From Dehalococcoidia bacterium (GTDB lineage: Bacteria > Chloroflexota > Dehalococcoidia > SZUA-161 > SpSt-899), in the NCBI GenBank assembly GCA_048539495.1, contig JBLYPS010000005.1, positions 11,473 through 75,472 of the forward strand: DNA of 64,000 nucleotides. Reading direction: 5' to 3'. This document shows positions 45,964-64,000 of the stretch, in pieces. The notes below the pieces were generated by a model that was given only the letters and a program-made list of their open reading frames with translations, had not been told where the DNA came from and did no database searches. Numbering within the stretch: the first letter of the stretch is position 1; the number at the start of each line of letters is the position of its first letter. The position numbers and the translations under genes are program-made.

Positions 45964-46689
45964 TCATGCCGCCGGGAAAAGCTTGCCGTATGAAAAGATC
46001 AGGTTGATGCCCAGCGCTCGCGCCAGTTCCTGGACGGCAGGCCGAGCCCGGAATCCGAAGAATAGCGGGATCACCTCGGCGTGCGCCAGGTACTGGCCTT
46101 GCAACAGATGCGGGCGTGCCCGCTCCACTAGCGTGGCGAAGCGGATCAATTCCGGAGCAGTGATGTTGGTTTTCACCTCACCCAGAATCACCACCATTTG
46201 TCCCGGCCGGTCCCGATAGATCCCCTCTCCGTAGATGTTGAACTCCACCTCTTCTTCCCCGATGGTCACGTACCCCCGAGCCAACTCACCCAACTTCAGG
46301 CCCAGTTCCTTCTCCAGGACGTACGGTACCACTTCATAGGAAAGATCTTCCAGGCCACCGCCCAGATTTTCACTCAACCCCCCTAACTGGTGAGCCAGAT
46401 CCCGCACCGCTTTTTCAGTCCGCACCTGCACCTGCGCCAACTTGTCGATCCGTGCCTCGGTCCGTACCTGTGCCTGCGCCAATTCAGCCACCCGTGCCTC
46501 GGTCCGCACCTGCGCCTGCGCCAACTCAGCCACCCGTGCCTCGGTCCGCACCTGCGCCTGCGCCAAGTCCTGCACGACATCCCTGAGTTCGCCCAACTCG
46601 GTGGTATGCTTCTCCTGCACGTACTCCGCCACCATCTCGTTGATGGCCCGCCGCTGTTCCAGATTAAAAGCCTGCTCCGATAAACTCAT
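45964..46689 (-). CDS. Coiled-coil 14-aa-repeat protein with a C-terminal PD-(D/E)XK-like domain
   Basis: (LAQAQVRTEARVAE)n, then EFNIYGEG...ILGEVKT. Confidence 0.7.
   Translation of the reverse strand: MSLSEQAFNLEQRRAINEMVAEYVQEKHTTELGELRDVVQDLAQAQVRTEARVAELAQAQVRTEARVAELAQAQVRTEARIDKLAQVQVRTEKAVRDLAHQLGGLSENLGGGLEDLSYEVVPYVLEKELGLKLGELARGYVTIGEEEVEFNIYGEGIYRDRPGQMVVILGEVKTNITAPELIRFATLVERARPHLLQGQYLAHAEVIPLFFGFRARPAVQELARALGINLIFSYGKLFPAA
46418..46566. repeat. 42-bp coding tandem repeat (~3.5 copies)
   Basis: GCCACCCGTGCCTCGGTCCGCACCTGCGCCTGCGCCAA units. Confidence 0.85.
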
Positions 46690-46809
46690 CATCACACCTC
46701 TCATGTGTCAACCAGGAATACACTCTATAATCCTACCATAAATATCTACGGATGAAAAGCAACTTGCCCGGGGTGAGTTCAACATCGCTGGATTCCGAAA
46801 CCAGTCCTT

Positions 46810-46922
46810 GCAATAATTCTTCCCTGACAAAAGCCCATCTGACATCTGCTGAATTCTCAAGCTTCTTGGGATAGGGGCGAATTTATTCGCCCTGTCGGGG
46901 GGGAGACTAAATCCTCCCCTAC
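46810..46922 (+). repeat. ~110-bp element ending in the REP-like hairpins, duplicated at 51153-51263
   Basis: Shared CCTGACAAAAGCCCATCTG.CATCTGC.GAATTCTCAAGCTTCTTGGG followed by the REP. Confidence 0.85.
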
Positions 46923-46989
46923 TCAATGTTATCACCCTCACTACACTGGGAAAGGCGTTTTCGACCTGAAACACCGGACGGGCGCAGAA

Positions 46990-47018
46990 CCTAACCTTTT
47001 GTCGTTTTCTTCGTTATA
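46990..47018 (+). promoter_or_regulatory. ECF-type promoter, class P1
   Basis: CCTAAC-N16-CGTTATA; the same motif and spacing occur at 48579 and 53271. Confidence 0.7.
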
Positions 47019-47058
47019 ATTAATACGGCAGCAATATTGAGCTGTCGGAGGTTGCTAG

Positions 47059-47619
47059 GTGCAAGATGAACAGGATATTGTCCACCGGGCGCAAAGGGGA
47101 GACAAAGAAGCTCTGGCGCAACTTTACGAGACCCATTTTGACAAGGTGTATCGTTACGTAAGGCTCAGAATAGGAAACCGGACAGAGGCGGAGGATATAA
47201 CCCAGCAGGTCTTTCTGAAGGCAGTTGGGTCTATTTCCACCTTCAAGTGGAAGGGCATACCCTTCGCTGCCTGGTTATTTCGTATTGCTCACAATGAGGT
47301 GGCCGACCATTGGAGAAAGGAAAGCAAGCAGGGAACGGTTCCTCTTAATGAATCGCTGACGAGAGCCACCGGTAGCGCCGGCAACCCGCATTTGGTGGCA
47401 GAACACCAGTCGGATATTGAGCAGCTAATGACAGCGACGAAGAGGCTGACTAAGGCACAGCGCGAGGTGATTTCTCTTCGCTTTGCCAGTGAGTTATCTA
47501 TCGCACAGGTAGCAAGTGTTATGGGTAAAAGTCAGGGGGCTGTGAAGGCATTGCAGCATAGTGCGATTGTCGCTTTGCGCGAAGCACTGTTAGTGGGAGA
47601 GGATAATGAAGAGAGGTAA
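47059..47619 (+). CDS. ECF sigma factor (sigma-1)
   Basis: AEDITQQVFLKA, AWLFRIAHN, LTKAQREVISLRF and SQGAVKALQHSA. Confidence 0.93.
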   Translation: MQDEQDIVHRAQRGDKEALAQLYETHFDKVYRYVRLRIGNRTEAEDITQQVFLKAVGSISTFKWKGIPFAAWLFRIAHNEVADHWRKESKQGTVPLNESLTRATGSAGNPHLVAEHQSDIEQLMTATKRLTKAQREVISLRFASELSIAQVASVMGKSQGAVKALQHSAIVALREALLVGEDNEER

Positions 47620-48541
47620 AGAAGACATCCTGGATGAATGTTTAGAACGACTGCTGGTCAACGGCCAGACTGTAGAACAATGTCTTCAGAGCTATCCGGA
47701 GCTCTCAACTGAGCTTGAGCCATTACTGAGGACAGTCCTGGCCGCAAGAAAGGCTTCCGTTATCCGACCTTGCCCGGAGTTCAAAGCCAGAGCGAGATAC
47801 CAGTTTCACCGGGCACTCGAGGAATTAAAGCCTAAGAGAAGGCTCTGGGCCTGGGACTGGCAGCCACGCTGGGTGACGGCGGTAGCCATAATCCTTGTCT
47901 TGGTGCTTGCTGGTGGCGGCACGATGATGGCAGCTCACGATAGCATGCCTGGCCATCTCCTCCATCCGGTGAGGTTGGCCACCGAGGAGGTGCGATTGGC
48001 ACTAACCCCTTCAGCCATAGGCAAAGCAGAACTGCACGCAGAGCTTGCAGACAAGAGGGTAGCAGAGATCATTTACCTGGCTAAGAGGGAAGATAAAGCA
48101 GCGAAAGTAGTGCAGGTCGTTCAGCGACTGGAGCATCACCTGACCACGATAACGGACCTAGCTTTAGCCGAAGCAGTGACGAAGATGGATCATTTTGAAG
48201 TTGAAGAAAAAGTCCAGGTGCCGGTTGAGCTAACAGCACCGGCGGTCCCTCCGCCTGCTCAAGTTGAGGGAGAAGCGGCAACACATCTTGGTGCGCGATA
48301 CAAAGTCGATGAAGCTGAACCACTCGCCCCGAACATTGTTCCAACCGCCAAGGAGATGGTTCTACTTGAGGCCGATAGGTGGGCTAGACTCAAAATAACC
48401 CTGCAATATCAGGCGGTCGATCACCTGGCTGACCTACGCAATCTACTGCCGGTAGCCCCGGAATCAGCAATACCCGCGCTCCTTGAGGCAATTGTCATAG
48501 CTGAAGCCAGCTATGAGCGAGCCCTTCGAGTTTTGGAGTAG
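47606..48541 (+). CDS. Membrane anti-sigma factor with a DUF5667-like domain
   Basis: LDECLERL...CLQSYPE N-terminus, one TM helix, and SMPGHLLHPVRLATEEVRLALT; overlaps the sigma stop. Confidence 0.8.
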   Translation: MKRGKEDILDECLERLLVNGQTVEQCLQSYPELSTELEPLLRTVLAARKASVIRPCPEFKARARYQFHRALEELKPKRRLWAWDWQPRWVTAVAIILVLVLAGGGTMMAAHDSMPGHLLHPVRLATEEVRLALTPSAIGKAELHAELADKRVAEIIYLAKREDKAAKVVQVVQRLEHHLTTITDLALAEAVTKMDHFEVEEKVQVPVELTAPAVPPPAQVEGEAATHLGARYKVDEAEPLAPNIVPTAKEMVLLEADRWARLKITLQYQAVDHLADLRNLLPVAPESAIPALLEAIVIAEASYERALRVLE

Positions 48542-48578
48542 GTAGAAGCCAGTTTCCCCCAAATACTCCCTGCTCTTT

Positions 48579-48607
48579 CCTAACTTTTTGGTGCTTTCTT
48601 CGTTATA
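48579..48607 (+). promoter_or_regulatory. ECF-type promoter, class P1
   Basis: CCTAAC-N16-CGTTATA upstream of protease copy A. Confidence 0.7.
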
Positions 48608-48732
48608 TATAGTAGAGGGAAAAATCCCGGTCACCAATAAGGGAGGTGAGAGCCAGTGACGATAACCTGAATCGAGTCAGAGTTCGTCCACACTCGCAAA
48701 AAAGTGGGCCAGAAATTAGGAGGATAACAAAG

Positions 48733-50371
48733 ATGAAGCTGACGAGAATAAAAGGAATCGCCCTACTTGTGGCTGCGGTATTGTTGCTGACGGGAGCAAT
48801 GGGTGCAATAGCAGCAGGTGGGGAAGAGAGGCGTGAGGAGTTCCGAATGGATGCTCGCTACTGGTGGGAAGCACCACCCTTAACCCCTTATGAGCGTGAG
48901 CAAGTAAGGGGGATAATGGTCTTGATACTTGACCGTTACTTTGGGATTGATGTTTCTACTATGAGCCCAGAGGAGTTCGAGGATTTGGGGAGATCGATAG
49001 GTCCCGAAAGAGAGAAGGAGGCACTTCGCCTCTTCGAGCATTACGCCAAGAAGAAGGGATTTCAAATGCCTGCAGGGATATTTGAAATGCCTGTGGGGAT
49101 CCCTGTTCCCGGGGAGTTCATACCCCCTGCTGAGGTAAGCTACTGGTGGGAATTGGTTGACCCTGAATATCGTGAGGCAAGGATTGCCTTTTTCCAGGAA
49201 ATGTTTCCAGAGGTCAATGTGAGGAATATGACGCCGGAGGAATTTGAACGTCTCCTTAACCCTCCTCCGCCTCCTCTCAGATTGCTGTCGATTGAGGAGA
49301 TGAAGGGGGAACCGGCTGTCATCGCGGTACATGGAAGAGCCCGTTCATACAGCACCCAGGCCGAGATACGAGAATGGCTCAATAGATTGCGTGAAGTGCA
49401 AGAACTCTTCGGTATTCTGAAGGGGCTAACGGGGCCATCGTTCCCTAGAATCACTGCTAGTGTTGATCCTGCCGGTTACGTCGAGGTATCGCTGACTATG
49501 TTCGAAGGCGAAGAAATGACAATTAATGATGCTCTAGCGTATGTGCCCGAAATTTATGCATTAATAGCTGAGAAGGCAGAGACACTCGACATCAAGGATG
49601 TTCCGGTCGTATTTCGCTTGATAAGAATAATGACAGGACTTTAGTACAGCGACCAGTCCAACCATTGAGGTGGCAATAGCTCCGCAGACAACCCTCCTGG
49701 GTTATGGCGCAAGATATCGCCCTATAATTGGCGGAATTCAGAAGCAGACACGTATTGCGTGGAGATTATCGACAATAGGCTTCGCAGTTCGGCGTCCAAT
49801 CCCGTGGTGGCCTGATGATCTAGACTATGTCATCACCGGACACCTTGGCCCTAGCAATACGCGAACGCCTGTAAATACGCAGATATACCAGCCAACAGTA
49901 GCGTCGGGAAACGAAGTCGGCAGGGTTGCAGCCGTTGCAAGCATGAATGGCTTTGCGGATGTAGCTCGGGTAGCCATTGACAATTGGCATGTCGCCCCAT
50001 ATATCCATATCGGAGGTGGGCACACGGTAGCCGTAAGGGCTTGGGGAGATCCAGTTGAGCACCAGTGGGTCAGTAAATCTGGAATCGCAACCGGCGTTAC
50101 TATTGGGCGGGTAATTAGAACAGGTGTTCCAGAGAACAACCTTGCCTTCGGCACTCTCCAAAACCAGGTTAGAGTAGCTTTTAGAATGACTCCCGGAGAC
50201 AGTGGCGCCCCCGTTTACAGACACAGGAACGGCTGGGCCGAGGGGGTGGAGATACTAGGGATCCTCTGGGGTTGGGCAGAGGATGGGGCAGGCAACTTTT
50301 TATACTCCATCTTTTCACCAACATCGGGAGTAAGAGCTGAACTACCAGGATGGCAACCGCACACGAAATAA
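48733..50371 (+). pseudogene. Secreted S1 protease paralog A, split by one extra base at ~49639-49642
   Basis: Signal peptide, YWWE repeats and DVPVVF prodomain; removing one T from CTTTAG joins it to RYRPIIGG...TGHLG...FADVARV...PGDSGAP. Confidence 0.85.
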
Positions 50372-50450
50372 TTTGCCGTCGTCCCCAATATGGAAAACCT
50401 TAGGGGAAATCCTGGGGCATAATACTTGAGGTTGTTTCAACGGTTCGGAA

Positions 50451-50515
50451 GACACAATACCTATTTCTTCCAAGGCGAGCGAGTTGCCCGCCGATGGTGA
50501 GATAGGTATTGTGTC
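50451..50515. repeat. 65-bp MITE-like element with 14-bp perfect terminal inverted repeats
   Basis: GACACAATACCTAT ... ATAGGTATTGTGTC. Confidence 0.65.
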
Positions 50516-50576
50516 CCGGGTTTCGATAACGTTATAATCAACACGGCAGCAATATTAAGCTGTCGGAGGTTGCCAG

Positions 50577-51137
50577 GTGCAAGATGAACAGGATATTGTC
50601 CACCGGGCGCAAAGGGGAGACAAAGAGGCTTTGGCGCAACTTTACGAGACCCATTTTGACAAGGTGTATCGTTACGTAAGGCTCAGAATAGGAAACCGGA
50701 CAGAGGCAGAGGACGTTACCCAGCAGGTCTTTCTGAAGGCAGTTGGGTTTATTTCCACCTTCAAGTGGAAGGGCATACCCTTCGCTGCCTGGTTATTTCG
50801 TATTGCTCACAATGAGGTGGCCGACCATTGGAGAAAGGAAAGCAAGCAGGGAACGGTTCCTCTTAACGAATCGCTGACGAGAGCCAACAGTAGCGCCGGC
50901 AACCCGCATTTGGTGGCAGAACACCAGTCGGATATTGAGCAGCTAATGACAGCGACGAAGAGGCTGACTAAGGCACAGCGCGAGGTGATTTCCCTTCGCT
51001 TTGCCAGTGAGTTGTCTATCGCACAGGTGGCAAGTGTTATGGGTAAAAGTCAGGGGGCGGTGAAGGCATTGCAGCATAGTGCGATTGTCGCTTTGCGCGA
51101 AGCACTGTTAGTGGGAGAGGATAATGAAGAGAGGTAA
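50577..51137 (+). CDS. ECF sigma factor (sigma-1', near-identical duplicate of 47059-47619)
   Basis: Same length with only a few substitutions (DI>DV, GS>GF, TG>NS); DNA 47012-47629 aligns with 50530-51147. Confidence 0.9.
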   Translation: MQDEQDIVHRAQRGDKEALAQLYETHFDKVYRYVRLRIGNRTEAEDVTQQVFLKAVGFISTFKWKGIPFAAWLFRIAHNEVADHWRKESKQGTVPLNESLTRANSSAGNPHLVAEHQSDIEQLMTATKRLTKAQREVISLRFASELSIAQVASVMGKSQGAVKALQHSAIVALREALLVGEDNEER

Positions 51138-51147
51138 AGAAAACATC
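51124..51147 (+). pseudogene. Anti-sigma 5' stub (MKRGKEN) cut off by the repeat element
   Basis: Matches MKRGKEDI at 47606, then switches to the 110-bp repeat. Confidence 0.75.
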
Positions 51148-51152
51148 TCCGT

Positions 51153-51263
51153 GCAGCAATTCTCTCCTGACAAAAGCCCATCTGGCATCTGCCGAATTCT
51201 CAAGCTTCTTGGGGTAGGGGCGAATTTATTCACTCTGTCGGGGGAGGCTAAAGCCTCCCCTAC
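51153..51263 (+). repeat. Second copy of the ~110-bp REP-containing element
   Basis: Aligns with 46810-46922; GTAG at 51214. Confidence 0.85.
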
Positions 51264-51299
51264 ACATAGAACTACTACCTCACTGCACGGGAAAGGCCG

Positions 51300-52613
51300 T
51301 TATTGCGCTGGGTCTGAGATTGAACCGCTCTTTGCCATCTCACGCATCCTGTCGATGAGCCGCTCGTTATAGGGCAGCAGCGCCATCGCGGTAGTCCTAG
51401 AATCGGAGGGCCCCAGCCTGTCCCCGTGAAAAGTAACATAGGCGGCGATTCCACCGTCGGGGTTCTGCATACTCCACAGCCTGGCCTCAATCTGAGGACA
51501 GTCGATTGGTATATCCAGAACCCTGCTGGCGTAGAGAATCAGGGCCAGCTTATGGGTGGCATAGATACCCTCTCTCCTGGTCGCGGCATCGTATATTCCC
51601 TTCCCATCCCACATCGAATATGCCTGATGGAAGTACTTCCTCGCCGCCTCTCCCTCGCCGCGCAGGTGTTGATTCAGCGATTGATAGATGAGCATGTCGC
51701 CGTAATCCTGCCAGGATAGCGGCATCGGCGAATCGTGGAATCGGGCGATAATCAGGAACTCGGCCTCCCTGGCCACCACAACCTCATTGGCGATGGAGAT
51801 ATCCCTCGGTATCGGCTCGCCAAAGAGAACCTCAAATAGCCGGCTCGGCCGCTGGGCGTAGCGCCGCAGTGTTTGCGCTATCTCTTGAGCCATCTCCGCA
51901 TCGAACGGCTGGAGGACATACGAGGCGATCAGGTTATCGGGATAGAGCCAGTATATCTGGTCATAACGATATTGCCGGCTACCCACCATCCTGAAGCCAG
52001 GTTCCTTGCTCTGAAAGATAAGCCCAACCTCGGGATTGAAGCTGGACCTGAGGTAATCCACCGCCCTGGCGATTTGCTGGTCGCGGTCCACTTTGTCGGC
52101 AAGTGCAACCTCCGCGCCTTTTACTGGTGCGGCGTCAAGTCCAGCCACCTCAACCAAGCGCTCGATTTGGGGCGGCTCCGATACTGGTGCTACTTCCATT
52201 TCCTCGTCCACGTCCTTCTCGATCAATCCCACCCCCACCGGGGCCGGTGCGATCATCCGCGGGACGATGAGGGCCAGGGCCACCACCAGAAAGATGGATA
52301 GTCCCGCCGCCAGCGCCGGGCGATGCCGCAACCATAGCGCCGAGAAGGCTCCGGTGATGACGGAGATCCAACCTGGTGACCTCTCCAGTTCTACTCTCTG
52401 CAGGCGAACAAGGAAACCGGGAGCCGGCTCGATGCTTTCCCAGTATCGGGGAACCTCTTGCCTCAAGCGGACATCCAGTTTGCTGACGCTCTCCAGTTCA
52501 TTAGCGCAATCCTGGCAACTCTGGAGATGCCCCTCAAAGGCATTGAGGTCATTGCCCCGGAAGGCGCCGGCTAAGTATTCTGCCAATCTCTCCCTGACCT
52601 GGTGACACTTCAT
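51300..52613 (-). CDS. Zinc-finger (zf-HC2/ZAS) membrane anti-sigma factor with a large extracytoplasmic domain
   Basis: MKCHQVRERL...HLQSCQDC (HxxxCxxC), TM helix ALAAGLSIFLVVALALIV, and a helical C-domain with LWSMQNPDGG; TAATG coupling to sigma-3. Confidence 0.85.
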   Translation of the reverse strand: MKCHQVRERLAEYLAGAFRGNDLNAFEGHLQSCQDCANELESVSKLDVRLRQEVPRYWESIEPAPGFLVRLQRVELERSPGWISVITGAFSALWLRHRPALAAGLSIFLVVALALIVPRMIAPAPVGVGLIEKDVDEEMEVAPVSEPPQIERLVEVAGLDAAPVKGAEVALADKVDRDQQIARAVDYLRSSFNPEVGLIFQSKEPGFRMVGSRQYRYDQIYWLYPDNLIASYVLQPFDAEMAQEIAQTLRRYAQRPSRLFEVLFGEPIPRDISIANEVVVAREAEFLIIARFHDSPMPLSWQDYGDMLIYQSLNQHLRGEGEAARKYFHQAYSMWDGKGIYDAATRREGIYATHKLALILYASRVLDIPIDCPQIEARLWSMQNPDGGIAAYVTFHGDRLGPSDSRTTAMALLPYNERLIDRMREMAKSGSISDPAQ

Positions 52614-53182
52614 TATCTATCACCCCCCTCTAAATATAGACGTAACAAGCGGTATGATTCGCTCAGTATCCTTCTTACGGTTCCCACAGGACGGTTCAAG
52701 GTACGGGCTATTTCATCGGTGGAGGCATCCTCGGAGTAGTGCAGCATGATGACCAGGCGGTGCAGCTCCGGCAGCCTGGTGATCGCTTCATGAAGGTCGA
52801 GGGCAAAATCCTGTCTGCTCTCCGCAGGATTATGAGACATCGCCGTTTTGTGTATGGAGATGGTGGCTTCGACAGCCTTGCGCTCTCGCTGCCTCTTGCG
52901 CAGGAGGTCATAGGCCCTGGTGGTAACTATGCGGCCGAGCCAGGAGCCAAAGGAGCCCTCCTTCTCCAGTTTCTTGATAGACTTATAGGCGGTGATGAAG
53001 GCTTCCTGCACCGTGTCCTCGGCGTCGCTCTGGTTCCGGAGGATGGCGAAGGCAATACGGTAGGCTCGCGGTGCATGAGTCTCCATCAGTTGCCCGAAAG
53101 CCTCCCTGTCGCCTGCCCTGGCCCGGCGAATCAAGGTTATTTCTTCATGGAGGAAGTTCTCGTTCAATAGATCTGCCTTCAA
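52613..53182 (-). CDS. ECF sigma factor (sigma-3)
   Basis: DAEDTVQEAFITAY, SFGSWLGRIV, LPELHRLVIMLHY and PVGTVRR. Confidence 0.92.
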   Translation of the reverse strand: MKADLLNENFLHEEITLIRRARAGDREAFGQLMETHAPRAYRIAFAILRNQSDAEDTVQEAFITAYKSIKKLEKEGSFGSWLGRIVTTRAYDLLRKRQRERKAVEATISIHKTAMSHNPAESRQDFALDLHEAITRLPELHRLVIMLHYSEDASTDEIARTLNRPVGTVRRILSESYRLLRLYLEGGDR

Positions 53183-53233
53183 GAAACCCTTCTGCTGAGA
53201 TTATACGCCAGTGCGGAAAGCAATCGCAAGCGG

Positions 53234-53299
53234 GTGAGCAGAACCGGTCGTTCCAAGCGTCTTAAATATACCTAACTTTTTGGCGTCTGCTTCGTTATA
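53234..53299 (+). promoter_or_regulatory. Tandem ECF-type promoters P2 then P1
   Basis: GTGAGCA-N17-CGTC (53234-53261) followed by CCTAAC-N16-CGTTATA (53271-53299). Confidence 0.7.
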
Positions 53300-53441
53300 T
53301 ATTATAGAGGGGCAAAAATGTGGATAAGGTATGGGGGCAAACGGGGAAGTGGGGGGTGTGCTTTCAGGAGGTGATAACGATGTAAGAATGAGATCGAGTA
53401 GGGGGCGACTCCAGGGAAGAAGAAAAAGGAGGGAAAAGAAA

Positions 53442-54419
53442 ATGAAAAAATGGTGGTTAGTGATCAGTCTGGTAGTCGTGATTGCCATGCTCGGTGCGGG
53501 GGGGCTTGTGGCTTTCCATGGTAATCAGCAGGTGGCGGATTATGGCTACGGTGCTGAGGTAGATGGTGATGTCACCGCTGAGGGGGATACTAATCTGGCC
53601 GCTGAGGAACTAACACTAACAGCACTAACATCTGATGTCTACATGCCTAACCCCGAGCACACGAAAGCCTATGAAAAACTGTTTGAGGCTATACCTTATA
53701 TGAACGCCCAAGGTATACCTGTGGTAGATTTTTGCCGACGCCACTGTGGGACAGACCCCGAGACGGGCGCCACTCAGATCATGGTTATCTTGGTAGGGCT
53801 CAGAGAGGTGAGGGACGAGTATAAAGAGGCCATAAAAGCGATAGTGGAGGGCGTTGATGGCATAGAATTCGACTTCTTCCAGGCCGAATTTACCAGGGAG
53901 GAAATTTGGGGCTGGCAAGATAAGATTTGGGGAACATTCTCACGTCCCTGGGACCTTCCGCCGGGCATAATAGAGGTTCCTGTATCCGGGACAAGCTCAT
54001 CATGGAGGGATCAGATAATAGGGGTTCAACTTGCTGGGGAGGTAAGGCCAGAGTATATCGAGGCCATTAAAGCCGTAGTTGGCAACGAAGCTCCGCTCAA
54101 CTTTCAGGGCGGAGGCTCCGTGCGTCACCACACCCGCTATTGGCAAGAAAAGTGGGACCCTGATGAGATGATGGAAAAACAAGTGATGTTGCATGTCTTT
54201 GCGCTGCTCTTTCCCGACGTTGAGTTATCGAGTATGCGCATCGGGGAAGTTGAGGAGTTCATTAAGGGATTAAGCGTCGAGGAAGCAACAGAGCTTATTC
54301 GCAAGCTCCTTGATTATGCCCTTGAGCGAGGGTTAGTAACGCCGTTAGTAACCCCGGAGGAGCGGCAGGAATTAGAAGAAGAAATGCTGCAACATTGGCT
54401 GGAATGGAGGCAAGAGTAG
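53442..54419 (+). CDS. Secreted or membrane-anchored protein with two prodomain-like modules and a C-terminal RYW domain; no protease domain
   Basis: N-terminal hydrophobic helix; repeats EYKEAIKAIV and EYIEAIKAVV; the C-terminal RYWQE...LFPDVELSSM...E aligns by eye with RYWWE...YFGIDVSTMSPEEFE. Confidence 0.75.
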   Translation: MKKWWLVISLVVVIAMLGAGGLVAFHGNQQVADYGYGAEVDGDVTAEGDTNLAAEELTLTALTSDVYMPNPEHTKAYEKLFEAIPYMNAQGIPVVDFCRRHCGTDPETGATQIMVILVGLREVRDEYKEAIKAIVEGVDGIEFDFFQAEFTREEIWGWQDKIWGTFSRPWDLPPGIIEVPVSGTSSSWRDQIIGVQLAGEVRPEYIEAIKAVVGNEAPLNFQGGGSVRHHTRYWQEKWDPDEMMEKQVMLHVFALLFPDVELSSMRIGEVEEFIKGLSVEEATELIRKLLDYALERGLVTPLVTPEERQELEEEMLQHWLEWRQE

Positions 54420-54585
54420 ATGGAATCGTTGTCTCTTTCGTTATATATTATAGAGGGGCAAATCATGGTCGCCACGAAGGGAGGTGAGCGCCAGTGATGA
54501 TAAGCTAAATGTGGTCAGGTGAGCTGGGAGTTCGTCCACACTCACAAAAAGTGGGCAAAAACATAAGAAACGGAGGGTAACAAAA

Positions 54586-56338
54586 ATGAAACTGAAGGGA
54601 ATAAAAGGGATCGCCTTGCTTGTGACTGCGCTGACCTTGCTGGTAGCACCACTGGCTGCAATAGCAGGAGAGGGTATTAATGGGGAATTCAGACCGACGA
54701 CAGGGGAAGGATGGGAATGGGACGCTCGCTATTGGTGGGAAGTGCCGCCTTTAACTGCTTATGAGCGTGAGCAGATGAGGGAGATAATGACCCTGATATT
54801 TGACCGTTACTTCGGAATTGATATCAGCAGGATGAGCCCACAAGAATTTGAGGACGTCGGGACATCGATAGGTCTTGAAGGAGAGAAGAAGGCACTTCGC
54901 CTCTTTGAGCATTACGCCAGGGAGAGGGGATTTCAAATGCCTGCAGGGATATTTGAAATGCCTGGGGAGAGACCCATTCCCGGGGAGTTTATACTCCCGG
55001 TTGATGTAACCTACTGGTGGGAACTGATATACCCTCAATACCGCGAGAAGGAGATTGCCATAATGCTACAGCTTCATCCAGAGCTCAATCGTTATGATCT
55101 GCTGAATATGACGCTGGAGGAGTTTCAACGTCTCCTTAACCCACCTCCGCCTCCTTTGAGATTAAGATTGGTCACGAGAGAAGAGATAGAAGAGTTGGTC
55201 GCGAGAAACCCCTATGTCATTGCAGTATACGGAAAGCTCCGAGCGTATGATACCCAGGCTGAGATAAAAGAGTGGCTCGAGAGATTGGAGGAAGTGCAGG
55301 ACCTTGCGCTCATCCTTATTCTTGAACTAACCACGGCACCACTCACTTCCCTTGGCGTTGGTGCGGGTTACATCTCAGTAGGGTTGTGTATGGACACAGT
55401 GACCGCTGATGAGGCTCTTCTACGGTATGTGCCTGAAGTTCATGCCGTGATATCTGAGGAGGCGGAGACATTCGGCATCTACGATGTTCCCGTAAAATTT
55501 TCGCTTGGCGGACGCATACGATTCGATCTAGGGTACGATATAGGGTGCATAGCGGTACATGCGGATGTTGCAACTCAATCGGGGGCAGTTAGCTCCGCTC
55601 CCGGTTGGTGGCCCTTCCCAGGTCGCATCCCAACTGATCCGAGAGACCACCCCCATGCTCTCATAATTGGTGGGCTTCGCCATGCGATACGCGGGGAGAC
55701 AGGATGGGCCACAACAAGGCTTCGTAGTGCAAAGGCCAATCCCCTTCTGGTGGGATGATGAGGACTATCTCATCACTGGACACTTTGGTCCTGGCAGATT
55801 GCCCGGTACAACCCCTGTAAATCGGGTCGTGTACCAACCAGGGCATCCGCACAACGCCGGGCAGGTTGCAGCAGTCGCACCGTTGGGTGGTTTTGCGGAT
55901 GTAGCCCGAGTGGCAATTGCCGACAGGCGTGTCAACCCCCCATATGTCCATCTGGGGGATCCCGGAATGGATGGCAAAAAGCCAGTTCTCGGCTGGCTGG
56001 ATGATGTACACCGGCAACACGAGCTCTGGATGTCTGGGGCAAGGAGTGGCCTACAATTTGGGCGCGTACATTGGACAAGGAGAGACATAGTTTGCCCCGT
56101 CCGAGGAACTTTTCTCCGGGATCAGGTCTGGGCAGATTATCATGCCGATCCTGGAGATAGTGGCGCTCCCATTCTCCACCCTATGTCAAGGATCGTTGGC
56201 GGCGAGATAACGCGAGGAGTGGCAGTATTAGGAATCCACTCCGGTAGAAAAGTGTACCAAGGTAGGGTATATCGCTTCTTTTCCCCAATATCTGGGATAA
56301 GAACTGAACTGCCAGGATGGTATCCATACACGAGATGA
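54586..56338 (+). pseudogene. Secreted S1 protease paralog B, split by one extra A at ~55716
   Basis: ACAACAAGGCTTC versus ACAACAGGCTTC (TTGF, as in paralog E); triad motifs TGHFG, FADVARV and PGDSGAP are intact. Confidence 0.85.
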
Positions 56339-56419
56339 TTTGCCGCTGTCCTTGACCGAGGGGCATTAATAATTGACCCCAGAGCTATATACGCTGACGC
56401 AGAAAAACGAGCGCAAGTG

Positions 56420-56447
56420 ATGAGCAGAATTATGTGTTCCAGACGTC
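56420..56447 (+). promoter_or_regulatory. ECF-type promoter, class P2
   Basis: ATGAGCA-N17-CGTC upstream of paralog C. Confidence 0.6.
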
Positions 56448-56585
56448 TCACATATAGAGGCCAACATACCAGTGCCCGCCTCGCTTTTGATGGAAGGGGG
56501 CGATGGTTATGTGAAAACGAAACTATAACGGGGAGCTCGTCCACACTCGCAAAAAAGTGGATAAATACAAGGGAGAGTAACAACA

Positions 56586-57638
56586 ATGAGACCGAAGGGA
56601 ATAAAAGGGATCGCTTTACTCGTCGCTGCGGTATTGCTGCTGGTGATTCCAATGGTTGCAATACCGGCAGCAGGTGGGGAAGAGAGGGGGGAGGGGTTCC
56701 GAGTGGATGCTCGCTATTGGTGGGAAGACCCGTATTTGACTGCTTATGAGCGTGAGCAGGTAAAGGAGATAATGGTTTTGGTATTTGACCGTTACTTCGG
56801 GACCGATGTCTCTGCTATGAGCCCTGAGGAATTCGAGGAGGTAGTGTTATCGGTAGGACCTGAACCTGAGGAGATATTCCGTCTGTTTACGCAATATGCG
56901 GAGAAAAGAGGGTTTGAAATCCCTGGGGAAATACCTGAGGAAGTACCTGACCCCCCTGTGGAGGACCGATGCGCGTATATTGCTCGTATAATGGCTGCCG
57001 ATGTAAGGTATCGGGAGTTATCGCCTGCCGATGTAACCTATTGGTGGGAACTGGTGGGGACTGAATGCCGTGAGGCAACAGTTGCGGCGGTGCGGGAACT
57101 GTTCCCCGAGATAGATGTGGTAGATGTGGTGAGTATGTCACCTGATGAACTGAATCTCCTGCTTAATCCCCCTCCTCCTCCACTTAGGCTGTTATCCATT
57201 GAGGAGAGAAGGGAGAAGCGCCCAACCACCATTATTGCGATATACGGAAGGCCCCGCACATATGAAAGTGAGGTTGAGGTGCGCGAGTGGCTTGGCAGAT
57301 TGCGAGGCATAGAGGAGAAAATCTTTCCCTGGGCTTACGATAACACAGGCAAGGTAATCATGTTTGGAGTTTGTCACGCCGGCTACCTCAGTGTGGGGTT
57401 GAATTTAGATAGGCTGACGAGAGATGAGGCTTTGGCATTTGCCGCCGAAGCATATCCGATACTAGCTGAAATGGCAAAGGCGGCGGGTGTCGACGATGTT
57501 CCGGTCGTATTCGAGCTCTGGGCAATAAGGACTACTACATTACGGCATGAAAGAATCCGTCCCATAGACGGCGGGATTCGGATGAGCAGGCAACTGGCTG
57601 ATTACTGCCTTCTCACCAATGACTGGGGTAACAAATGA
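56586..57638 (+). pseudogene. Paralog C: prodomain only, protease domain replaced by unrelated sequence
   Basis: Homology ends at RHERIRPIDGGIRM (~57585); 57590-57868 is unrelated sequence. Confidence 0.8.
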
Positions 57639-57916
57639 GCTGGATCCCTTCATTCCCTATACAATTTTCTGTCCGTAGGAGAATTGAGATGCTGGCTCCT
57701 CGGTGAGTGTAGAGGGGCCAGTATCTTTCTTTTGCAATGAAAATAAGGCAGAGAGCTGGAGGAATTGCCACAAAACAACGCAGTTAAAACCTTTGAGAAG
57801 ACCAAGCTGGTAGTTTGGGGTACAACTAACTCTGAGCGGGATTGCCTGTTCCACATGTCTTGTATACAACACTCGCAAAAAGCGGGCAAGAAACTAAGAA
57901 ACGGAGGGTAACAAGA

Positions 57917-59662
57917 ATGAGACTGAAGGGAATAAAAGGGATCGATTTACTCGTCGCTGCGGCATTGTTGCTGATAGCATTAATGGGTGCAATAGCAGCA
58001 GCGGGTGGGGAAGAGAGACGTATTGATGTGGAGGACTTTAATTGGGATGCTCGCTATTGGTGGGAGGCGCCACCTTTAACCCCTTATGAGCGTCAACAGG
58101 TAAAGGAGATAATGGTCTTGATACTTGACCGTTACTTCGGAACTGATGTCTCTGCAATGAGCCCAGCAGAATTCGAGGAGTTGGGGGAGTCGCTAGGCCC
58201 CGAAAGAGAGAAGGAGGTGCTTCGCCTCTTTGAGCGTTACGCCGAGAAGAGGGGATTTGAAATCCCTCCAGGGCTATTTGAAATGCCTGTGGAGGTACCC
58301 GCTCCCGATGAGCTCATACCCCCTGCTGGGGCACGCTACTGGTGGGAACTGGTGGACCCTGAATATCGCGAGAATGCAATTGCCTTCGCCAAGAAGCACA
58401 TTCCAGAGATGCTTCGCTACTACTGGCAGCTCGCCACGGAGGAAGGGTTTGAAGTGCCGCCGGGCATGCCTCGTCCTGAAGAAGTCGATGTGATGAGATT
58501 GACACCGGAGGAGTATGCCCTTATTCTTAACCCACCTCTGCCTCCCCTCAGATTGCTGACGATAGAGGGGATAATAGAGGAGATGAAGGGAAGACCGTGG
58601 TTCGTTGCGGCATACGGAAGAATCCCGTCATACAATACCCAGACCGAGATACGAGAATGGCTCGACAGATTGCGTGAACTGAAAGACCTTATCGTGCCCC
58701 CCCCAGGGACACCATGGATACTACCACCGGCTACAGGCTTCATTGCGATTTCTAGTGACGGTTACCTTGACGTGGGGCTGAATAGGGACAAAATGGACAA
58801 ATTGAGAATCAATGAGGAGGCTCTGGCGCTTGCATTCGAAATTTATGCGCTGATATCTGAGAAGGCAGAGACGCTTGGCATGCAGGATGTTCCGGTCCTA
58901 TTTACCCTCACCAGAACTGGTGGCTTGGATGGTATTACAGCTCAACCCCATCAGGTGATAGATCCGGAGATAACCGCCGTGCAGCAAGCGGGCTACCGCG
59001 AAAGATATCGCCCCATAATTGGTGGGATTTTGATGACAATTGATGCATGGGGAGCGACAGTAGGCTTCGCAGTTCGAGATCCAATCCCGTGGTGGCCTGA
59101 TGATTTAGACTATGTCATCACCGGACACCTTGGTCCTCCCTTTGGCTCGCCAAGCCCTGTAAATACGCAGGTATACCAGCCAACAGTAGGACCCGGAAAC
59201 GAAGCCGGCAGGGTTGAAGATGTTGCAAGCATGAATGGCTTTGCGGATGTAGCCCGGGTGGCGATTCACAATTCGGATGTCGACCCATATATCCATGTAG
59301 GAGATGGCGCAAAGGTGCCGGTAAAGAGTTGGCGAGATCCACATATGCACGAGTGGGTCATAATGTCCGGGGTCGTAAGTGGCTACACTCAAGGGAGGGT
59401 ACTTCAGACAGGTGTTACATTACCTCAGGGCCACAACCCCGCCTTCGGCGCTCTCCGAAACCAGTTTATAGCAGCTTATGCACGCTCTGGAGGAGACAGT
59501 GGTGCCCCCATTTTCAGCTTCCTTGCGGGCTGGGAAGTAGAGATATTCGGAATCCATGTGGGTTCGATTGAACACCACGGTGTCATACGCCCCTACTTTT
59601 CACCAACATCGGGAGTAAGAGTTGAACTACCAGGATGGTATCCGTACACGAAATCCCCTTGA
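57917..59662 (+). CDS. Secreted S1 (chymotrypsin/alpha-lytic-like) protease paralog D, intact
   Basis: 581 aa: signal peptide, YWWE repeats, DVPVLF prodomain, TGHLG, FADVARV and GGDSGAP. Confidence 0.88.
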   Translation: MRLKGIKGIDLLVAAALLLIALMGAIAAAGGEERRIDVEDFNWDARYWWEAPPLTPYERQQVKEIMVLILDRYFGTDVSAMSPAEFEELGESLGPEREKEVLRLFERYAEKRGFEIPPGLFEMPVEVPAPDELIPPAGARYWWELVDPEYRENAIAFAKKHIPEMLRYYWQLATEEGFEVPPGMPRPEEVDVMRLTPEEYALILNPPLPPLRLLTIEGIIEEMKGRPWFVAAYGRIPSYNTQTEIREWLDRLRELKDLIVPPPGTPWILPPATGFIAISSDGYLDVGLNRDKMDKLRINEEALALAFEIYALISEKAETLGMQDVPVLFTLTRTGGLDGITAQPHQVIDPEITAVQQAGYRERYRPIIGGILMTIDAWGATVGFAVRDPIPWWPDDLDYVITGHLGPPFGSPSPVNTQVYQPTVGPGNEAGRVEDVASMNGFADVARVAIHNSDVDPYIHVGDGAKVPVKSWRDPHMHEWVIMSGVVSGYTQGRVLQTGVTLPQGHNPAFGALRNQFIAAYARSGGDSGAPIFSFLAGWEVEIFGIHVGSIEHHGVIRPYFSPTSGVRVELPGWYPYTKSP

Positions 59663-59719
59663 TGGGGTTGATGGGGAAACCTAAGGGGAATCTAAATCTA
59701 GGAGATAAATATTAGTGCC

Positions 59720-59798
59720 CCGCAAAAATCTTTGAATTTTTGCGGCGACCCCAGAGTCATTCTCCCCAAAAAGTCTTCGACTTTTTGGGGAGAACTAC
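59720..59798. repeat. Double hairpin between array genes (terminator- or REP-like); also at 61775-61853 and 63778-63856
   Basis: CCGCAAAAATCTTTGAATTTTTGCGG and TTCTCCCCAAAAAGTCTTCGACTTTTTGGGGAGAACTAC. Confidence 0.85.
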
Positions 59799-59830
59799 AT
59801 ACGTGTTGACGCAGAAAGCAAGCGCAAGTG

Positions 59831-59857
59831 GTGAGCAGAATCGTCTATCCCAGCGTC
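59831..59857 (+). promoter_or_regulatory. ECF-type promoter, class P2
   Basis: GTGAGCA-N16-CGTC upstream of paralog E. Confidence 0.6.
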
Positions 59858-60005
59858 TTATATATAGAGGCCAAAATTTAATGGCTGCGGCTGCCTCGCC
59901 CTTGATCGAAGGAGGTGATGGTTATGTGATAAGGAAACTATAACCGGGAGTTCGTCCATACTCGCAAAAAAGTGGGCAAAAAATAAGAAACGGAGGGTAA
60001 CAAGA

Positions 60006-61719
60006 ATGAAGCGGAAGGGAATAAGAACCATCGTCTTGCTTGGGGTTGTGGCATTGTTGCTGATAGCATTAATGGGTGCAATAGCAGCAGCGGGTGGGGA
60101 AGAGAGACGTATTGATGTGGAGGACTTTAATTGGGATGCTCGCTATTGGTGGGAGGCGCCACCTTTAACCCCTTATGAGCGTGAGCAGGTAAAGGAGATA
60201 ATGGTCTTCATATTTGACCGTTACTTCGGGATCGATGTCTCTACCATGAGCCCAGAGGAGTTCGAGGACTTGGGGAGGTCGATAGGCCCCGGAAGAGAGA
60301 AGGATGTACTTCTCCTCTTCGAGTATTACACCGAGAAGAGGGGATTTCAAATGCCTCCGGGGATATTCGAAATGCCTGTGGACATATCTGTTCTCGAGGA
60401 GTTCATGCCCCCTGCTGAGGTAAGCTACTGGTGGGAACTGGTAGACCCTGAATACCGTGAGGCAAGGATTGCCTTTTTCCAGGAAATATTCGGGGAAAGG
60501 TTTGAAAGGTATCCCGAAGAATTCCCATTCGCAGAAGTGAACGTGAGAAATATGACGCCGGAGGAGTTTGAACGTGCCCTTAGTCCGCCTCTGCCCCCTC
60601 TCAGATTGCTAACGATCGAGGAGATAAAGAGGGAAGGTCCGGCTATCATCGCGGTATACGGAAGACCCCGATCATACACTGCCCAGACCGAGATACGAGA
60701 ATGGCTCGATAGATTGCGTGAAGTGCAGGAACTCTTCATACAGCAAGTGTTTCCGGAGACGCCAGCACCTACGCGACTATTCCCCATAAACCAGATTGGT
60801 ATTCGCTACGGTTTCCTGGTCGTGGGACTGTGTAAGGAAGAATTAACAATCAATGAGGCTCTAGCTCTTGCATCCCACATTTATGCGCTGGTATCTGAGA
60901 AGGCAGATAGACTCGGTGTCCAGGATGTTCCGGTCGTATTTAGCCTCATCCGGAGGGCTGTGCTGGATATAGCTGAACCCCATCAGGTCGCACCTCCGCA
61001 GACAACACGCCCCCCATGGGTGCCCCCCGTGGGTCCAGCCTTCGTACTACCTAAGATTTCGTCCTATACCGGGTGCGGTTTTGATGGCGACACGTTATCT
61101 GCCGACGGGAGCTGCAACGACAGGCTTCGCGGTTATACGGCGAATCGCCTGGTGGCCTGATGATCTAGACTATGTCGTCACCGGACACCTTGGTCCTCGC
61201 CGTACGCGAACGCCTATAGGTATGCCGATATACCAGCCAAGGGTAGCCCCGGGAAACGAAGCCGGCACGGTTGAAGCTGTTGGAAGGATGCATGGATTTG
61301 CCGATGTAGCCCGGGTGGGGATTGCTAATCGCGATGTCGTCCCATATATCCATATAGGAGGTGGCTCCAGGATACCGGTAAGGAGTTGGCGAGATGCACA
61401 TTGGCCTGAGTGGGTCAGCAAGTCCGGGGCCGCAACTGGTGACACTCAAGGGAGGGTAGTTACCAGGCAACCTATTAAGGTATGGAACCCCGCCTTAGGC
61501 TCGCTCCAAAACCAGGTTTTAGCAGCTTACGCATCCGCTGGGGGAGATAGTGGCTCCCCCGTTTTCTTATTCGGTCCCACCGGGGGAGTATACGCAGTGA
61601 TAGTGGGAATCCACTGGGGTCGGGCACCTTGCCCGATAACAGGCATCGATAGGGCTACGTTTTCACCAATATCGGGGATAATGACCGAACTATCCGGATG
61701 GGAACCACACACGAAATAA
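60006..61719 (+). pseudogene. Secreted S1 protease paralog E, split by one extra base in the linker (~61005-61030, C6 runs)
   Basis: The prodomain frame drifts off; the +1 frame reads YYLRFRPIPG...TGHLG...FADVARV...GGDSGSP. Confidence 0.85.
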
Positions 61720-61904
61720 TTTGCTGCCGCCCCCAGTATGGAAAACCTCAGGGAATCCAGGGACATAATATGCCCCGCAAGAATCCAAAGATTTTTGCGG
61801 CGACCCCAGAGTCATTCTCCCCAAAAAGGCCTCGGCTTTTTGGGGAGAACTATAGAAACCCTAGTAGCGGGATTATATGCTGATGCAGGAAGCAAGCGCA
61901 AGTG

Positions 61905-61932
61905 ATGAGCAGAATTATCTGTTCCAGACGTC
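61905..61932 (+). promoter_or_regulatory. ECF-type promoter, class P2
   Basis: ATGAGCA-N17-CGTC upstream of paralog F. Confidence 0.6.
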
Positions 61933-62071
61933 TCATATATATAGAGGCCAACATACCAGTGCCCGCCTCGCCCTTGATCGAAGGAGGTGATGGTTATGTG
62001 ATAAGGAAACTATAACCGGGAGTTCGTCCATACTCGCAAAAAAGTGGGCAAAAAAAAGGAGGGTAACAAGA

Positions 62072-63721
62072 ATGAGGCTCAAGGGAATAAAAGGCATCGC
62101 CTTACTTATAGCTGCGGTATTGTTGCTGGTGATTCCAATGGCCGCAATACCAGCAGCGGCTGGAGAAGAGAGGCATGAGGAGTTCCGATGGGATGCTCGC
62201 TACTGGTGGGAAGCACTACCGCTTTCTCCCCATTATCAGCAGCAAGTGAGGGAGATAATGGTCTCGGTATTTGACCGTTACTTCGAGACTGATATCTCCG
62301 CTATGAGTCCACAGAAACTCGAGGAGTTGTGGAATGCGATAGATTGTGAAAGCCGAGAAAAGGTGCTGTGTCTCTCTGCACAATATGCCACAACGAAGGG
62401 GTTTCAAATACCCGGAATGCCTACTCCGAGGGAGGAGTTCATACCCCCTGCTGGTGCAACCTACTGGTGGGAGTTTGTGGACCCTGAACTGCGTGAGGGC
62501 GCAATTGTTGGGGCAAAGGAAGACATTCCAGAGGCGCTTCGCTCCGTCTGGGAGCTTACTGAGTGGAAGGGAGTTGAACTGCCCATACCTCGTCCTGAGA
62601 ACCTTGATGTGATGAGATTAACACCAGAGGAATATAATCTCATCCTTACCCCTTCATTCCCTCTTGGAAGGATAGGAGTTGAGGAGTGGATAAATAGATA
62701 TTTTCCGGGTGTTGATATCATTGCAACATTCGGGAGAACTCGCGCATATAGCAATCCAGCAAAATGGTTCGATAGATTGCGTGAAGTAACCGAGCTCACG
62801 TCTCCACTTTTCCTTCCCTTGATGAAAAGTAAATCTGGAATTTGGACGAAGGGGATTGACGCTTCCGGTTATATTAGTGTGTGGTTGGATTGCAGGAAGT
62901 TGACAAGGTGCGAGGCGGTGGCGATTGCTCCCAAGATTTATGCCATGATAGCTACAAAAGCAGAGATGGTTGGTGTTCAGGATGTTCCGGTCGTTATTGT
63001 CCTCAGGTGGATTGAAGTCCACCTAGCTGGATCGAAAGACCCGCGCGGCTACCTAGGGACACCCCTACCCCTTGACCAGAAATTCCGCCCCATACCCGGT
63101 GGAGCCCAAGTGAAGGGGAGATCATGGCACGCGACAGCGGGCTTCCCGGTTCAGAGGCCAATCGTGTTTTGGTGGGATGACAAAGACCTTACGACCACCG
63201 GACATCTTGGGGGCCCCCCTGTCCCTATAAACACGCGGGTGTACCAGCCAACGGAACTGGGGGGAAATAAAGTCGGCACGGTTGCCGGTGTTGCAAGCCG
63301 TGGAGGATTTGCAGATGTTGCGCGCGTAGCCACCCCCGATGGGAATGTCATCCCATACATTCGGGTAATGACCTTCTGGACATCCCCGGTAACAGGTTCG
63401 CGAGATCCAGCGCTGCATGAGTGGTCTGGCAAATTTGGGAGGACCACCGGTCGTACCTCCGGCCGCATACTTAGTGTGAATCGAGATACGTACAATCCTG
63501 CATTTGGCGTTCTCCAAGACCAAGTTTGGACAACTATTAGAGTAGAGCCCGGAGACAGTGGTTCTCCCCTTTTCATAAGCGCCGCCGGGGGTGGAGTGGC
63601 AGTAACAGGAATCGCCTGGGGTTTCTTATATTGCCCTCACATTGGCCGGATCGGCCTCTTTTCACCGGTATCGGGAGTAATGACTGAACTGCCAGGATGG
63701 AGACCATTCACGAGGAGATAG
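62072..63721 (+). CDS. Secreted S1 protease paralog F, intact
   Basis: 549 aa: signal peptide, YWWE repeats, DVPVVI, TGHLG, FADVARV and PGDSGSP. Confidence 0.88.
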   Translation: MRLKGIKGIALLIAAVLLLVIPMAAIPAAAGEERHEEFRWDARYWWEALPLSPHYQQQVREIMVSVFDRYFETDISAMSPQKLEELWNAIDCESREKVLCLSAQYATTKGFQIPGMPTPREEFIPPAGATYWWEFVDPELREGAIVGAKEDIPEALRSVWELTEWKGVELPIPRPENLDVMRLTPEEYNLILTPSFPLGRIGVEEWINRYFPGVDIIATFGRTRAYSNPAKWFDRLREVTELTSPLFLPLMKSKSGIWTKGIDASGYISVWLDCRKLTRCEAVAIAPKIYAMIATKAEMVGVQDVPVVIVLRWIEVHLAGSKDPRGYLGTPLPLDQKFRPIPGGAQVKGRSWHATAGFPVQRPIVFWWDDKDLTTTGHLGGPPVPINTRVYQPTELGGNKVGTVAGVASRGGFADVARVATPDGNVIPYIRVMTFWTSPVTGSRDPALHEWSGKFGRTTGRTSGRILSVNRDTYNPAFGVLQDQVWTTIRVEPGDSGSPLFISAAGGGVAVTGIAWGFLYCPHIGRIGLFSPVSGVMTELPGWRPFTRR

Positions 63722-63888
63722 CTTGCCGCTGTCCCTAATGGAGAAACCTCGGGGAGATCCAGCGACATGATAGTGCCCCGCAAAAATCTTTGAATTTTTG
63801 CGGCGACCCCAGAGTCATTCTCCCCAAAAAGTCTTCGACTTTTTGGGGAGAACTACATACGTGTTGACGCAGAAAGCAAGCGCAAGTG

Positions 63889-64000
63889 GTGAGCAGAATG
63901 CTCAGTTCATGCGTCTTATTATATAGAGGCCAAAAATTAATGGCTGCCTCGCCCTTGATCGAAGGAGGTGATGGTTATGTGATAAGGAAACTATAACCGG
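63889..64000 (+). promoter_or_regulatory. P2 promoter and conserved leader of a probable seventh array gene beyond the window
   Basis: GTGAGCA-N16-CGTC, then GCCTCGCCCTTGATCGAAGGAGGTGATGGTTATGTGATAAGGAAACTATAACCGG, identical to the leaders of E and F. Confidence 0.7.

Follow-up and report, generated by a model that had tools for sequence, protein, structure and literature searches.

In Bacillus subtilis, the aprE-type leader stabilizes its mRNA through a 5' stem-loop and ribosome binding, and aprE encodes a secreted protease. In enterohemorrhagic Escherichia coli, the leader of LEE1 (ler) carries a two-codon minigene on which optimal expression of ler depends (Islam et al. 2011, PMC3262186), and both the translation of this minigene and its position matter for expression of the next gene (PMC3262186). 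The STAB-SD element stabilizes the cry3A mRNA of Bacillus thuringiensis (Agaisse & Lereclus 1996; reviewed in PMC4113751), and in B. subtilis hbs a strong 5'-proximal Shine-Dalgarno (SD) sequence together with structure couples mRNA stability to ribosome binding (PMC5737220); in both leaders, ribosomes are needed for protection from RNase J1 (PMC4113751, PMC5737220). Ribosomes also bind at the Start-Stop sites of E. coli, with a modulating effect on expression (Meydan et al. 2019, bioRxiv 10.1101/520783). Leader minigenes and orphan SD stabilizers are known from few single loci in model bacteria. Here we describe a family of leaders in a 64,000-nucleotide (nt) stretch of DNA (positions 11473-75472 of contig C5 in genome G000; hereafter the window) from an uncultured genus of Dehalococcoidia. 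In these leaders, a strong orphan SD and a mini-open reading frame (mini-ORF) of one to four codons precede a small hairpin and the SD of the gene itself.

Each of the described systems resembles this leader in part. As in LEE1, a very short ORF with its own SD lies in a long leader (about 170 nt in LEE1) and does not overlap the gene. Unlike LEE1, which is a single E. coli locus, the leader forms a family over many non-homologous genes and has an 8- to 11-nt perfect anti-SD complement, an ORF of one to four codons, and an added conserved hairpin. The SD-like sequence of STAB-SD, which lies about 100 to 130 nt before the start codon, is complementary to 16S rRNA over an extended stretch, and is a proposed 30S binding site, has its counterpart in an orphan SD of extended complementarity situated 85 to 105 nt before the ATG of the gene. 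STAB-SD does not initiate translation, whereas nearly every copy of the present leader has a start codon at ideal spacing, with GTG or ATG 8 to 9 nt past the orphan SD in C, E, F, G, and every aligned copy of type I; moreover, STAB-SD blocks RNase J1, of which G000 has no clear orthologue. E. coli Start-Stop sites share the direct succession of start and stop codons 3' of an SD-like sequence, and a regulatory role has been proposed for them, but they lie inside coding regions and attenuate mildly, whereas the present ones are found in 5' leaders, with conservation between paralogs as well as between species. In hbs, ribosomes load on the gene's own strong SD, whereas here the strong SD is an orphan, well upstream of that of the gene.

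To judge from its sequence, the leader extends the class of leader minigenes and orphan SDs, adding a usable start relative to STAB-SD and a mobile, multigene family with a hairpin relative to LEE1. It offers a natural comparative series of about 34 copies in five species and two sequence types, some without one or the other module: the leader of protease gene D lacks the mini-ORF, that of a SIMPL gene lacks the hairpin, and copy H has lost both start codons. This series indicates that the SD-start-stop layout itself is kept by selection and is transferable from one gene to another unrelated one. The series likewise offers an initial look at posttranscriptional control in an uncultured Dehalococcoidia lineage, where a putative extracytoplasmic function (ECF) sigma regulon pairs secreted proteases with a serpin.

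Layout of the leaders

The 16S rRNA of G000 ends 3' in GGATCACCTCCTTTCT, so that AAGGAGGTGAT is an 11-nt perfect complement. Two sequence types occur. In type I (copies A and B, those on contig C2, and most copies in other species), GGAGGTGA is followed after 9 nt by [G/A]TG-NNN-ATA-ANC-T[A/G]A; in type II (C, E, F, G, and H), AAGGAGGTGAT precedes ATG TGA, which begins 8 nt after GGAGG. Complementarity to 16S rRNA extends over 11 nt at type II orphan SDs and 8 nt at type I orphan SDs, compared with 5 to 6 nt at the genes' own SDs. The mini-ORF is kept in 19 of 19 aligned type I copies, with variation in the start (GTG or ATG), the stop (TAA or TGA), and the codons, and is present too in the minus-strand copy on C2. 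The type II ATG TGA is retained in C, E, F, and G and is lost in H, which has ACG. A preliminary description of this DNA had proposed that the SD-start-stop layout is conserved and the peptide is not, and this is what the alignments bear out: the layout persists across both leader types and across species while the peptide varies. In all, the minigene or start-stop layout was found in A, B, C, E, F, and G, at a site at 53380, in the SIMPL leader, and in copies in four other species.

The leaders do not have the features of a leader-peptide attenuator: the peptide is not conserved (in type II it is a single codon), the hairpin lacks a U-tract, and no terminator was called in the leaders. A longer upstream ORF (uORF) reading through the conserved core (ATG TGG TCA ... 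CGT CCA CAC TCG) was rejected. Its start is absent in many copies, an A-run of 5, 6, or 8 nt breaks the frame, locus L016 and the plus-strand copy on C2 carry stops, and a hand count gave roughly 6 synonymous versus 11 nonsynonymous changes.

Upstream of the leaders lie two promoter-like motifs. P_I, which is CCTAAC-N16-CGTTATATAT (core form CCTAAC-N16-CGTTA, containing AAC-N16-CGT), gives an ECF-type -35/-10 arrangement in A, at the 53271 site, and in most copies of genomes G001 to G004. We take AAC-N16-CGT to be an ECF-type motif after promoters of the sigma-W/X/M type. P_II, which is GTGAGCAGAAT-N12/13-GCGTCTTAT, occurs eight times, all inside this array. Because these motifs are upstream and no sigma-70-type promoter was found near the leaders, the transcription start site (TSS) would fall 30 to 60 nt upstream of the orphan SD. 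With ECF-type motifs 30 to 60 nt upstream, the mini-ORF probably lies inside the transcribed leader, and the position of the promoter motif makes a TSS downstream of the mini-ORF unlikely.

The 17-nt core GTCCAYACTCRCAAAAA has five exact matches in the window versus 0.03 expected, each about 45 nt 5' of the ATG of a paralogous gene. Every element that the preliminary description had placed in A, B, C, E, and F was recovered at its position, including the weaker SD of C; these and the other leaders of the window are on the plus strand. Leader A (type I, 48579-48735) comprises P_I at 48579-48610, orphan SD GGAGGTGA at 48642-49, mini-ORF GTG ACG ATA ACC TGA at 48656-70, the hairpin at 48686-48709, the true SD at 48719-23, and ATG at 48733. 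Leader B (type I, 54421-54588) has a -10 element CGTTATATAT at 54439-48, followed by orphan SD GGAGGTGA at 54480-87, mini-ORF GTG ATG ATA AGC TAA at 54494-508, the hairpin at 54534-56, the true SD at 54572-76, and ATG at 54586. In leader C (type II, 56417-56588), P_II at 56417-52 precedes the weak orphan SD GGAAGGGGG at 56492-500, start-stop ATG TGA at 56509-14, a hairpin at 56539-62 whose 3' arm is GTGGAT, and ATG at 56586. Leader E (type II, 59828-60008) contains P_II at 59828-62, the 11-nt anti-SD complement AAGGAGGTGAT at 59909-19, ATG TGA at 59924-29, the hairpin at 59954-77, and ATG at 60006. The corresponding elements of leader F (type II, 61902-62074) are P_II at 61902-38, SD AAGGAGGTGAT at 61981-91, ATG TGA at 61996-62001, the hairpin at 62026-49, and ATG at 62072.

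Three further copies are incomplete or run past the window. Ahead of the intact protease gene D, a partial leader at 57869-57919, recognized from a partial nhmmer match and from its sequence, retains the loop, a 3' arm GCGGGC, the A-rich spacer, the true SD, and ATG at 57917. Leader G (type II), which precedes the serpin gene, is represented in the window by its 5' part at 63886-64000 (P_II at 63886-920, SD at 63962-72, start-stop at 63977-82). As a leader copy, it spans C5:75426-75535, window position 63954 onward, with its hairpin (C5:75479) and ATG (C5:75533) past base 64000. Copy H lies wholly beyond the window end (C5:76859-77130; loci L007 and L058). In H, P_II is followed by a long palindromic insertion, CATTGCGAG...CTCGCAATG; the mini-ORF start is ACG and the main start is ATA, and the main frame is still open over 596 codons and is 71% identical to F.

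Distribution and recurrence of the SD-start-stop module

A profile search of G000 (1.86 Mb, estimated completeness of 97%) returned 10 leader copies, of which 8 are on C5 (including the half-copy at D, and G and H) and 2 are on C2. BLAST found 3, 11, 3, and 7 copies in the other four genomes of the genus (G000 to G004 being five genomes of one genus), for a total of about 34, and no leader in 45 other genomes of the same order. A metagenome scan with the core pattern yielded 73 stretches, among which 6 were true leaders, all apparently from the G000 population. By this distribution, the leader appears to be a modular, genus-specific 5' untranslated element.

Some leaders have the SD-start-stop and no hairpin. 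One belongs to the SIMPL/DUF541 gene situated after H, which is preceded by P_II and GGGAGGTGATGGTTATGTGA with no core and whose orthologues keep the motif GGGAGGTG followed by ATG TGA. A second case is the leader (53231-53444) of a secreted protein without assigned function, whose true start is at about 53442 (MKKWW). Here P_II (53231-66) and P_I (53271-304) stand in tandem, the orphan SD is at 53367-74, and ATG TAA is at 53380-85, in the form GGAGGTGA-N5-ATG TAA (53367-85) with no core hairpin; the start-stop is conserved in G004 loci L146 and L149. The hairpin-less layout is conserved in G002 to G004.

The same association is seen genome-wide. Scoring ORFs of 6 codons or fewer that start 4 to 11 nt after an intergenic-like orphan GGAGGTGA, with expectations taken from local shuffles, we found such ORFs at 16 of 36 intergenic sites versus 3.0 expected. 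After paralogs were collapsed, the count was 11 of 30 (binomial P = 1.8e-5); among intragenic orphan GGAGGTGA sites, it was 5 of 94. Unrelated examples lie 74 to 164 nt before genes on C1, C2, C6, C10, and C12, and a cobalamin riboswitch stands directly ahead of one of them. Across the order, perfect-SD start-stops number 30 versus 5 for a reversed-pattern control.

A proposed ribosome-loading model

The leader may well load ribosomes in cis, in the manner of a minigene or of STAB-SD, a reading that we hold tentatively. Transcription of a set of secreted proteins (S1 proteases, the serpin, and proteins of unknown function) would start at the ECF-type promoter and place the orphan SD about 30 to 60 nt into the RNA, where it could pair with 8 to 11 nt of the 16S 3' end. 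With a start codon 8 to 9 nt farther on and a stop codon following at once or after three codons, ribosomes would bind the orphan SD more avidly than the 5- to 6-nt SD of the gene, make nothing useful, and terminate. Their 5'-proximal occupancy would then act in cis on the downstream gene, either by shielding the 5' end from 5'-end-dependent decay or by handing ribosomes on to the A-rich spacer and moderate SD 60 to 90 nt downstream. The 6-bp hairpin core would be a second, separable module, serving as a further stabilizer or as a recognition site. According to the preliminary description, ribosomes loaded on the mini-ORF would control or protect the mRNA. This is the best-supported reading, given the 16S complementarity, the kept layout, its hairpin-less recurrence, and the genome-wide enrichment; the part of the argument that concerned the hairpin has become weaker.

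Several observations weigh against this model. A clear orthologue of RNase J, the nuclease blocked by STAB-SD, was not found in G000: the TIGR00649 search gave 46 bits against a cutoff of 400, and the match is a 519-amino-acid (aa) MBL/RMMBL protein, a distant beta-CASP relative. RNase Y is present, and no RNase E/G was found in this genome. In front of the intact gene for protease D, orphan SD, mini-ORF, and 5' hairpin arm are all missing. In other genomes of the order, the frequency of exact perfect-SD start-stops is roughly what the abundance of GGAGGTGA would give (an estimated ~0.7 per genome); since that abundance accounts for the order-wide sites, no enrichment is claimed there. Gene conversion or recombination may lie behind part of the leader identity. 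Finally, in E. coli the start-stop of yecJ reduces expression instead of increasing it (10.1101/520783).

This last observation would suit a negative or conditional translational gate, in which the strong orphan SD and the start-stop would serve as a trap or turnstile for ribosomes and make expression of the secreted proteins lower or conditional, possibly by ribosome competition, by exposure of the C-rich core to Rho, or by translation-dependent cleavage. In yecJ, the start-stop attenuates its host gene (10.1101/520783). Rho is present in G000 (595 bits), the core UUCGUCCACACUCGCAAAAAA is C-rich and G-poor, and tight limits on proteases and their inhibitor are plausible. We nevertheless regard such a gate as rather unlikely: the mini-ORF is 60 to 90 nt from the true SD, too distant for it to occlude that SD directly, the C-rich stretch measures only some 20 nt, and no terminator follows.

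The hairpin core

The conserved core of 30 nt contains a hairpin in which GTCCAC pairs with GTGGGC (6 bp) around an A-rich loop of 11 to 14 nt. All six pairs form in 22 of the 24 copies tallied. Five of the six pairs vary, always on one side and with wobble or Watson-Crick pairing kept. At least 8 substitution events were counted, none of which breaks a pair; 7 of the 12 possible transitions preserve pairing, giving roughly P = 0.01, which is suggestive. The statement in the preliminary description that substitutions preserve pairing thus stands as a description of the copies, with every change one-sided and without covariation behind it: in the aligned leaders no pair has changed on both sides, and 500 of 500 shuffles pair as well. 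Since all changes are one-sided and wobble compatible, there is no true covariation, and the evidence for the hairpin is weaker than first implied. L039 and L043 lack the 3' arm, and in L142 to L144 this arm is degenerate. A 13-bp helix in the 5' part of copy B, tried as a further structure, was 65% paired across copies, no better than in shuffles and with no covariation.

If the core were the functional heart of the leader, as the site of a trans-acting protein or small RNA (sRNA) or as a small ligand-binding pseudoknot, the SD and mini-ORF would play a supporting part. No segment is more conserved than the core (identity of 0.90, with an invariant GAG.T.GT.C..A.T); it forms 6/6 pairs in 22/24 copies with its approximately 8 or more substitution events at 5/6 pairs all pair preserving, and on paper it fits an H-type pseudoknot (stem 1 GAGU/ACUC, stem 2 GUCCAC/GUGGGC, and an A-rich third loop). 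Beyond the missing covariation, however, RNAalifold on 19 type I leaders returned the 4-bp GAGU/ACUC stem alone (-2.5 kcal/mol), minimum free energy folding gave z-scores of -0.97 and -1.78 with no larger conserved fold, and an Rfam search of window positions 46000-64000, which the preliminary description had recommended, gave no relevant match at E <= 10. Changes in stem 1 break pairing in three cases and keep it in two, so that the pseudoknot is rated weak. An antisense sRNA partner was rejected, there being no complementary stretch longer than 14 nt in the genome and few matches of 13 to 14 nt, at about chance level. Since L039 and L043 have no 3' arm and the SIMPL and 53442 leaders have no core at all, a primary role for the core seems improbable. 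A broader proposal combines the modules: the start-stop plus a sequence-specific hairpin or pseudoknot would be a lineage-specific posttranscriptional regulon tag, read by a dedicated trans-factor that coordinates ECF-induced secreted proteases and the serpin through their mRNAs, and perfect-SD mini-ORFs would be a general 5' untranslated region device in small-genome Dehalococcoidia. This, too, seems improbable.

Conservation and mosaic evolution

Pairwise identity among copies is 0.30 to 0.45 upstream of the promoter, 0.67 to 0.90 over the promoter and leader, 0.90 in the core, and 0.40 to 0.70 at third codon positions. Between A and G1_L013, the leader is 0.91 identical and fourfold sites are 0.64 identical; between B and G4_L016, the values are 0.88 and 0.42, respectively. 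Leader identity and coding identity are often discordant across G000 to G004, in a pattern of mosaic evolution, indicating that leaders and gene bodies have recombined. For B versus G4_L034, identity falls from 0.92 far upstream to 0.84 in the leader and 0.47 in the protein; L021 and L025 are 0.96 identical at fourfold sites and 0.87 identical in the leader.

This mosaic pattern, the tandem arrangement of the genes, and the extension of the conserved block into the signal-peptide codons (third-position identity of 0.70 over codons 1 to 20) could be read as signs that the leader has no function of its own and is a residue of recent tandem duplication and gene conversion of a cassette of promoter, leader, and signal peptide. 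A leader without its own function is very unlikely, as identity is at background immediately 5' of the promoter, start and stop codons vary yet stay start and stop codons, and the layout recurs in unrelated leaders and is enriched genome-wide after paralog collapse. A DNA-level operator, GCGAGT-N8-ACTCGC, bound by a repressor downstream of the promoter was rejected as highly improbable. Many G002 and G004 copies do have a near-perfect inverted repeat of 6 to 7 bp around 8 bp of spacer, yet conservation is limited to the inner 4 bp, mismatches are frequent farther out (G0 copies, L010, L016, L025, and L047), and the site would lie about 70 to 95 bp downstream of the inferred TSS.

ECF sigma factor genes

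P_I is not confined to the leaders: a match located by nhmmer with the promoter profile and by sequence (CCTAAC-N16-CGTTA, 46990-47023, plus strand) precedes an ECF sigma gene at 47059-47619, whose product is recognized by Pfam as Sigma70_r2, Sigma70_r4, and Sigma70_ECF. The presence of P_I both here and at the leaders suggests autoregulation of this sigma gene and a regulon.

Three ECF sigma genes are situated within 6 kb, at 47059-47619, 50577-51137, and 52613-53182 (minus strand). The first is followed by a gene for a DUF5667 protein, and the third is followed by one for a zf-HC2 anti-sigma factor (51300-52613, minus strand). At the second, the -10 element CGTTATAAT is kept and no -35 element is recognizable.

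Genes under the leader

The preliminary description placed the leader before each protease gene, which is correct for the presence of leaders at proteases and too narrow as a rule, because leaders also head the serpin and other non-homologous secreted-protein genes and because D has only the 3' half. As for the protease label itself, Pfam recognized none of the "protease" ORFs of the window, and partial support comes from the C-terminal domain of F alone, which aligns weakly and consistently with streptogrisin-type S1 proteases (2sfa, SGPA, and SGPB; E = 1e-3; GDSG aligned). Within the window, just two of these genes are intact, D (57917-59662) and F (62072-63721). The spans of the other paralogs are 48733-50371 (A), 54586-56338 (B), 56586-57638 (C), and 60006-61719 (E). 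In A, B, and E alike, frameshifting separates the N-terminal ORF from the ORF for the protease domain, which is in a different frame; such splits could reflect pseudogenes or assembly errors or be deliberate. C stops short of a protease domain.

The clearest non-homologous gene is that for a serpin of 431 aa (C5:75533-76828; L006:1555-2850; Pfam Serpin, 398 bits), which lies just past the window end. The serpin has a lipobox-like signal peptide and the same type II leader as the proteases, so protease and inhibitor appear to be coregulated. Other non-homologous genes under the leader are one for a 415-aa unknown protein on C2, G1_L027, and a small lipoprotein-like gene in G002 and G004. A similar signal peptide (MKLKGIKGIALLV...) heads these genes as well.

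Additional short ORFs in leaders

At C1:89120-89352 (minus strand; L161), a cobalamin riboswitch (RF00174, 51 bits) and a terminator-like hairpin are followed by GGAGGTGA-N7-ATG TGA TAA, the distance to the regulated gene being 164 nt. Another small tandem array, on C2 (6632, 8786, and 10307, minus strand; L056), shares a different promoter-like 5' end. Two of its members carry GGGAGGTGA and then ATG AGA/GGA AAA TGA before secreted-protein genes, and the third, a leader copy, has an upstream ATG ATG in frame with the main ORF. In G003 (C54:13198-13500; L142), a type II-like GAAGGAGACG ATG... comes after a degenerate type I leader and opens a uORF of about 21 codons, the TGA of which overlaps the ATG of a lipoprotein gene (ATGA), a layout of translational coupling.

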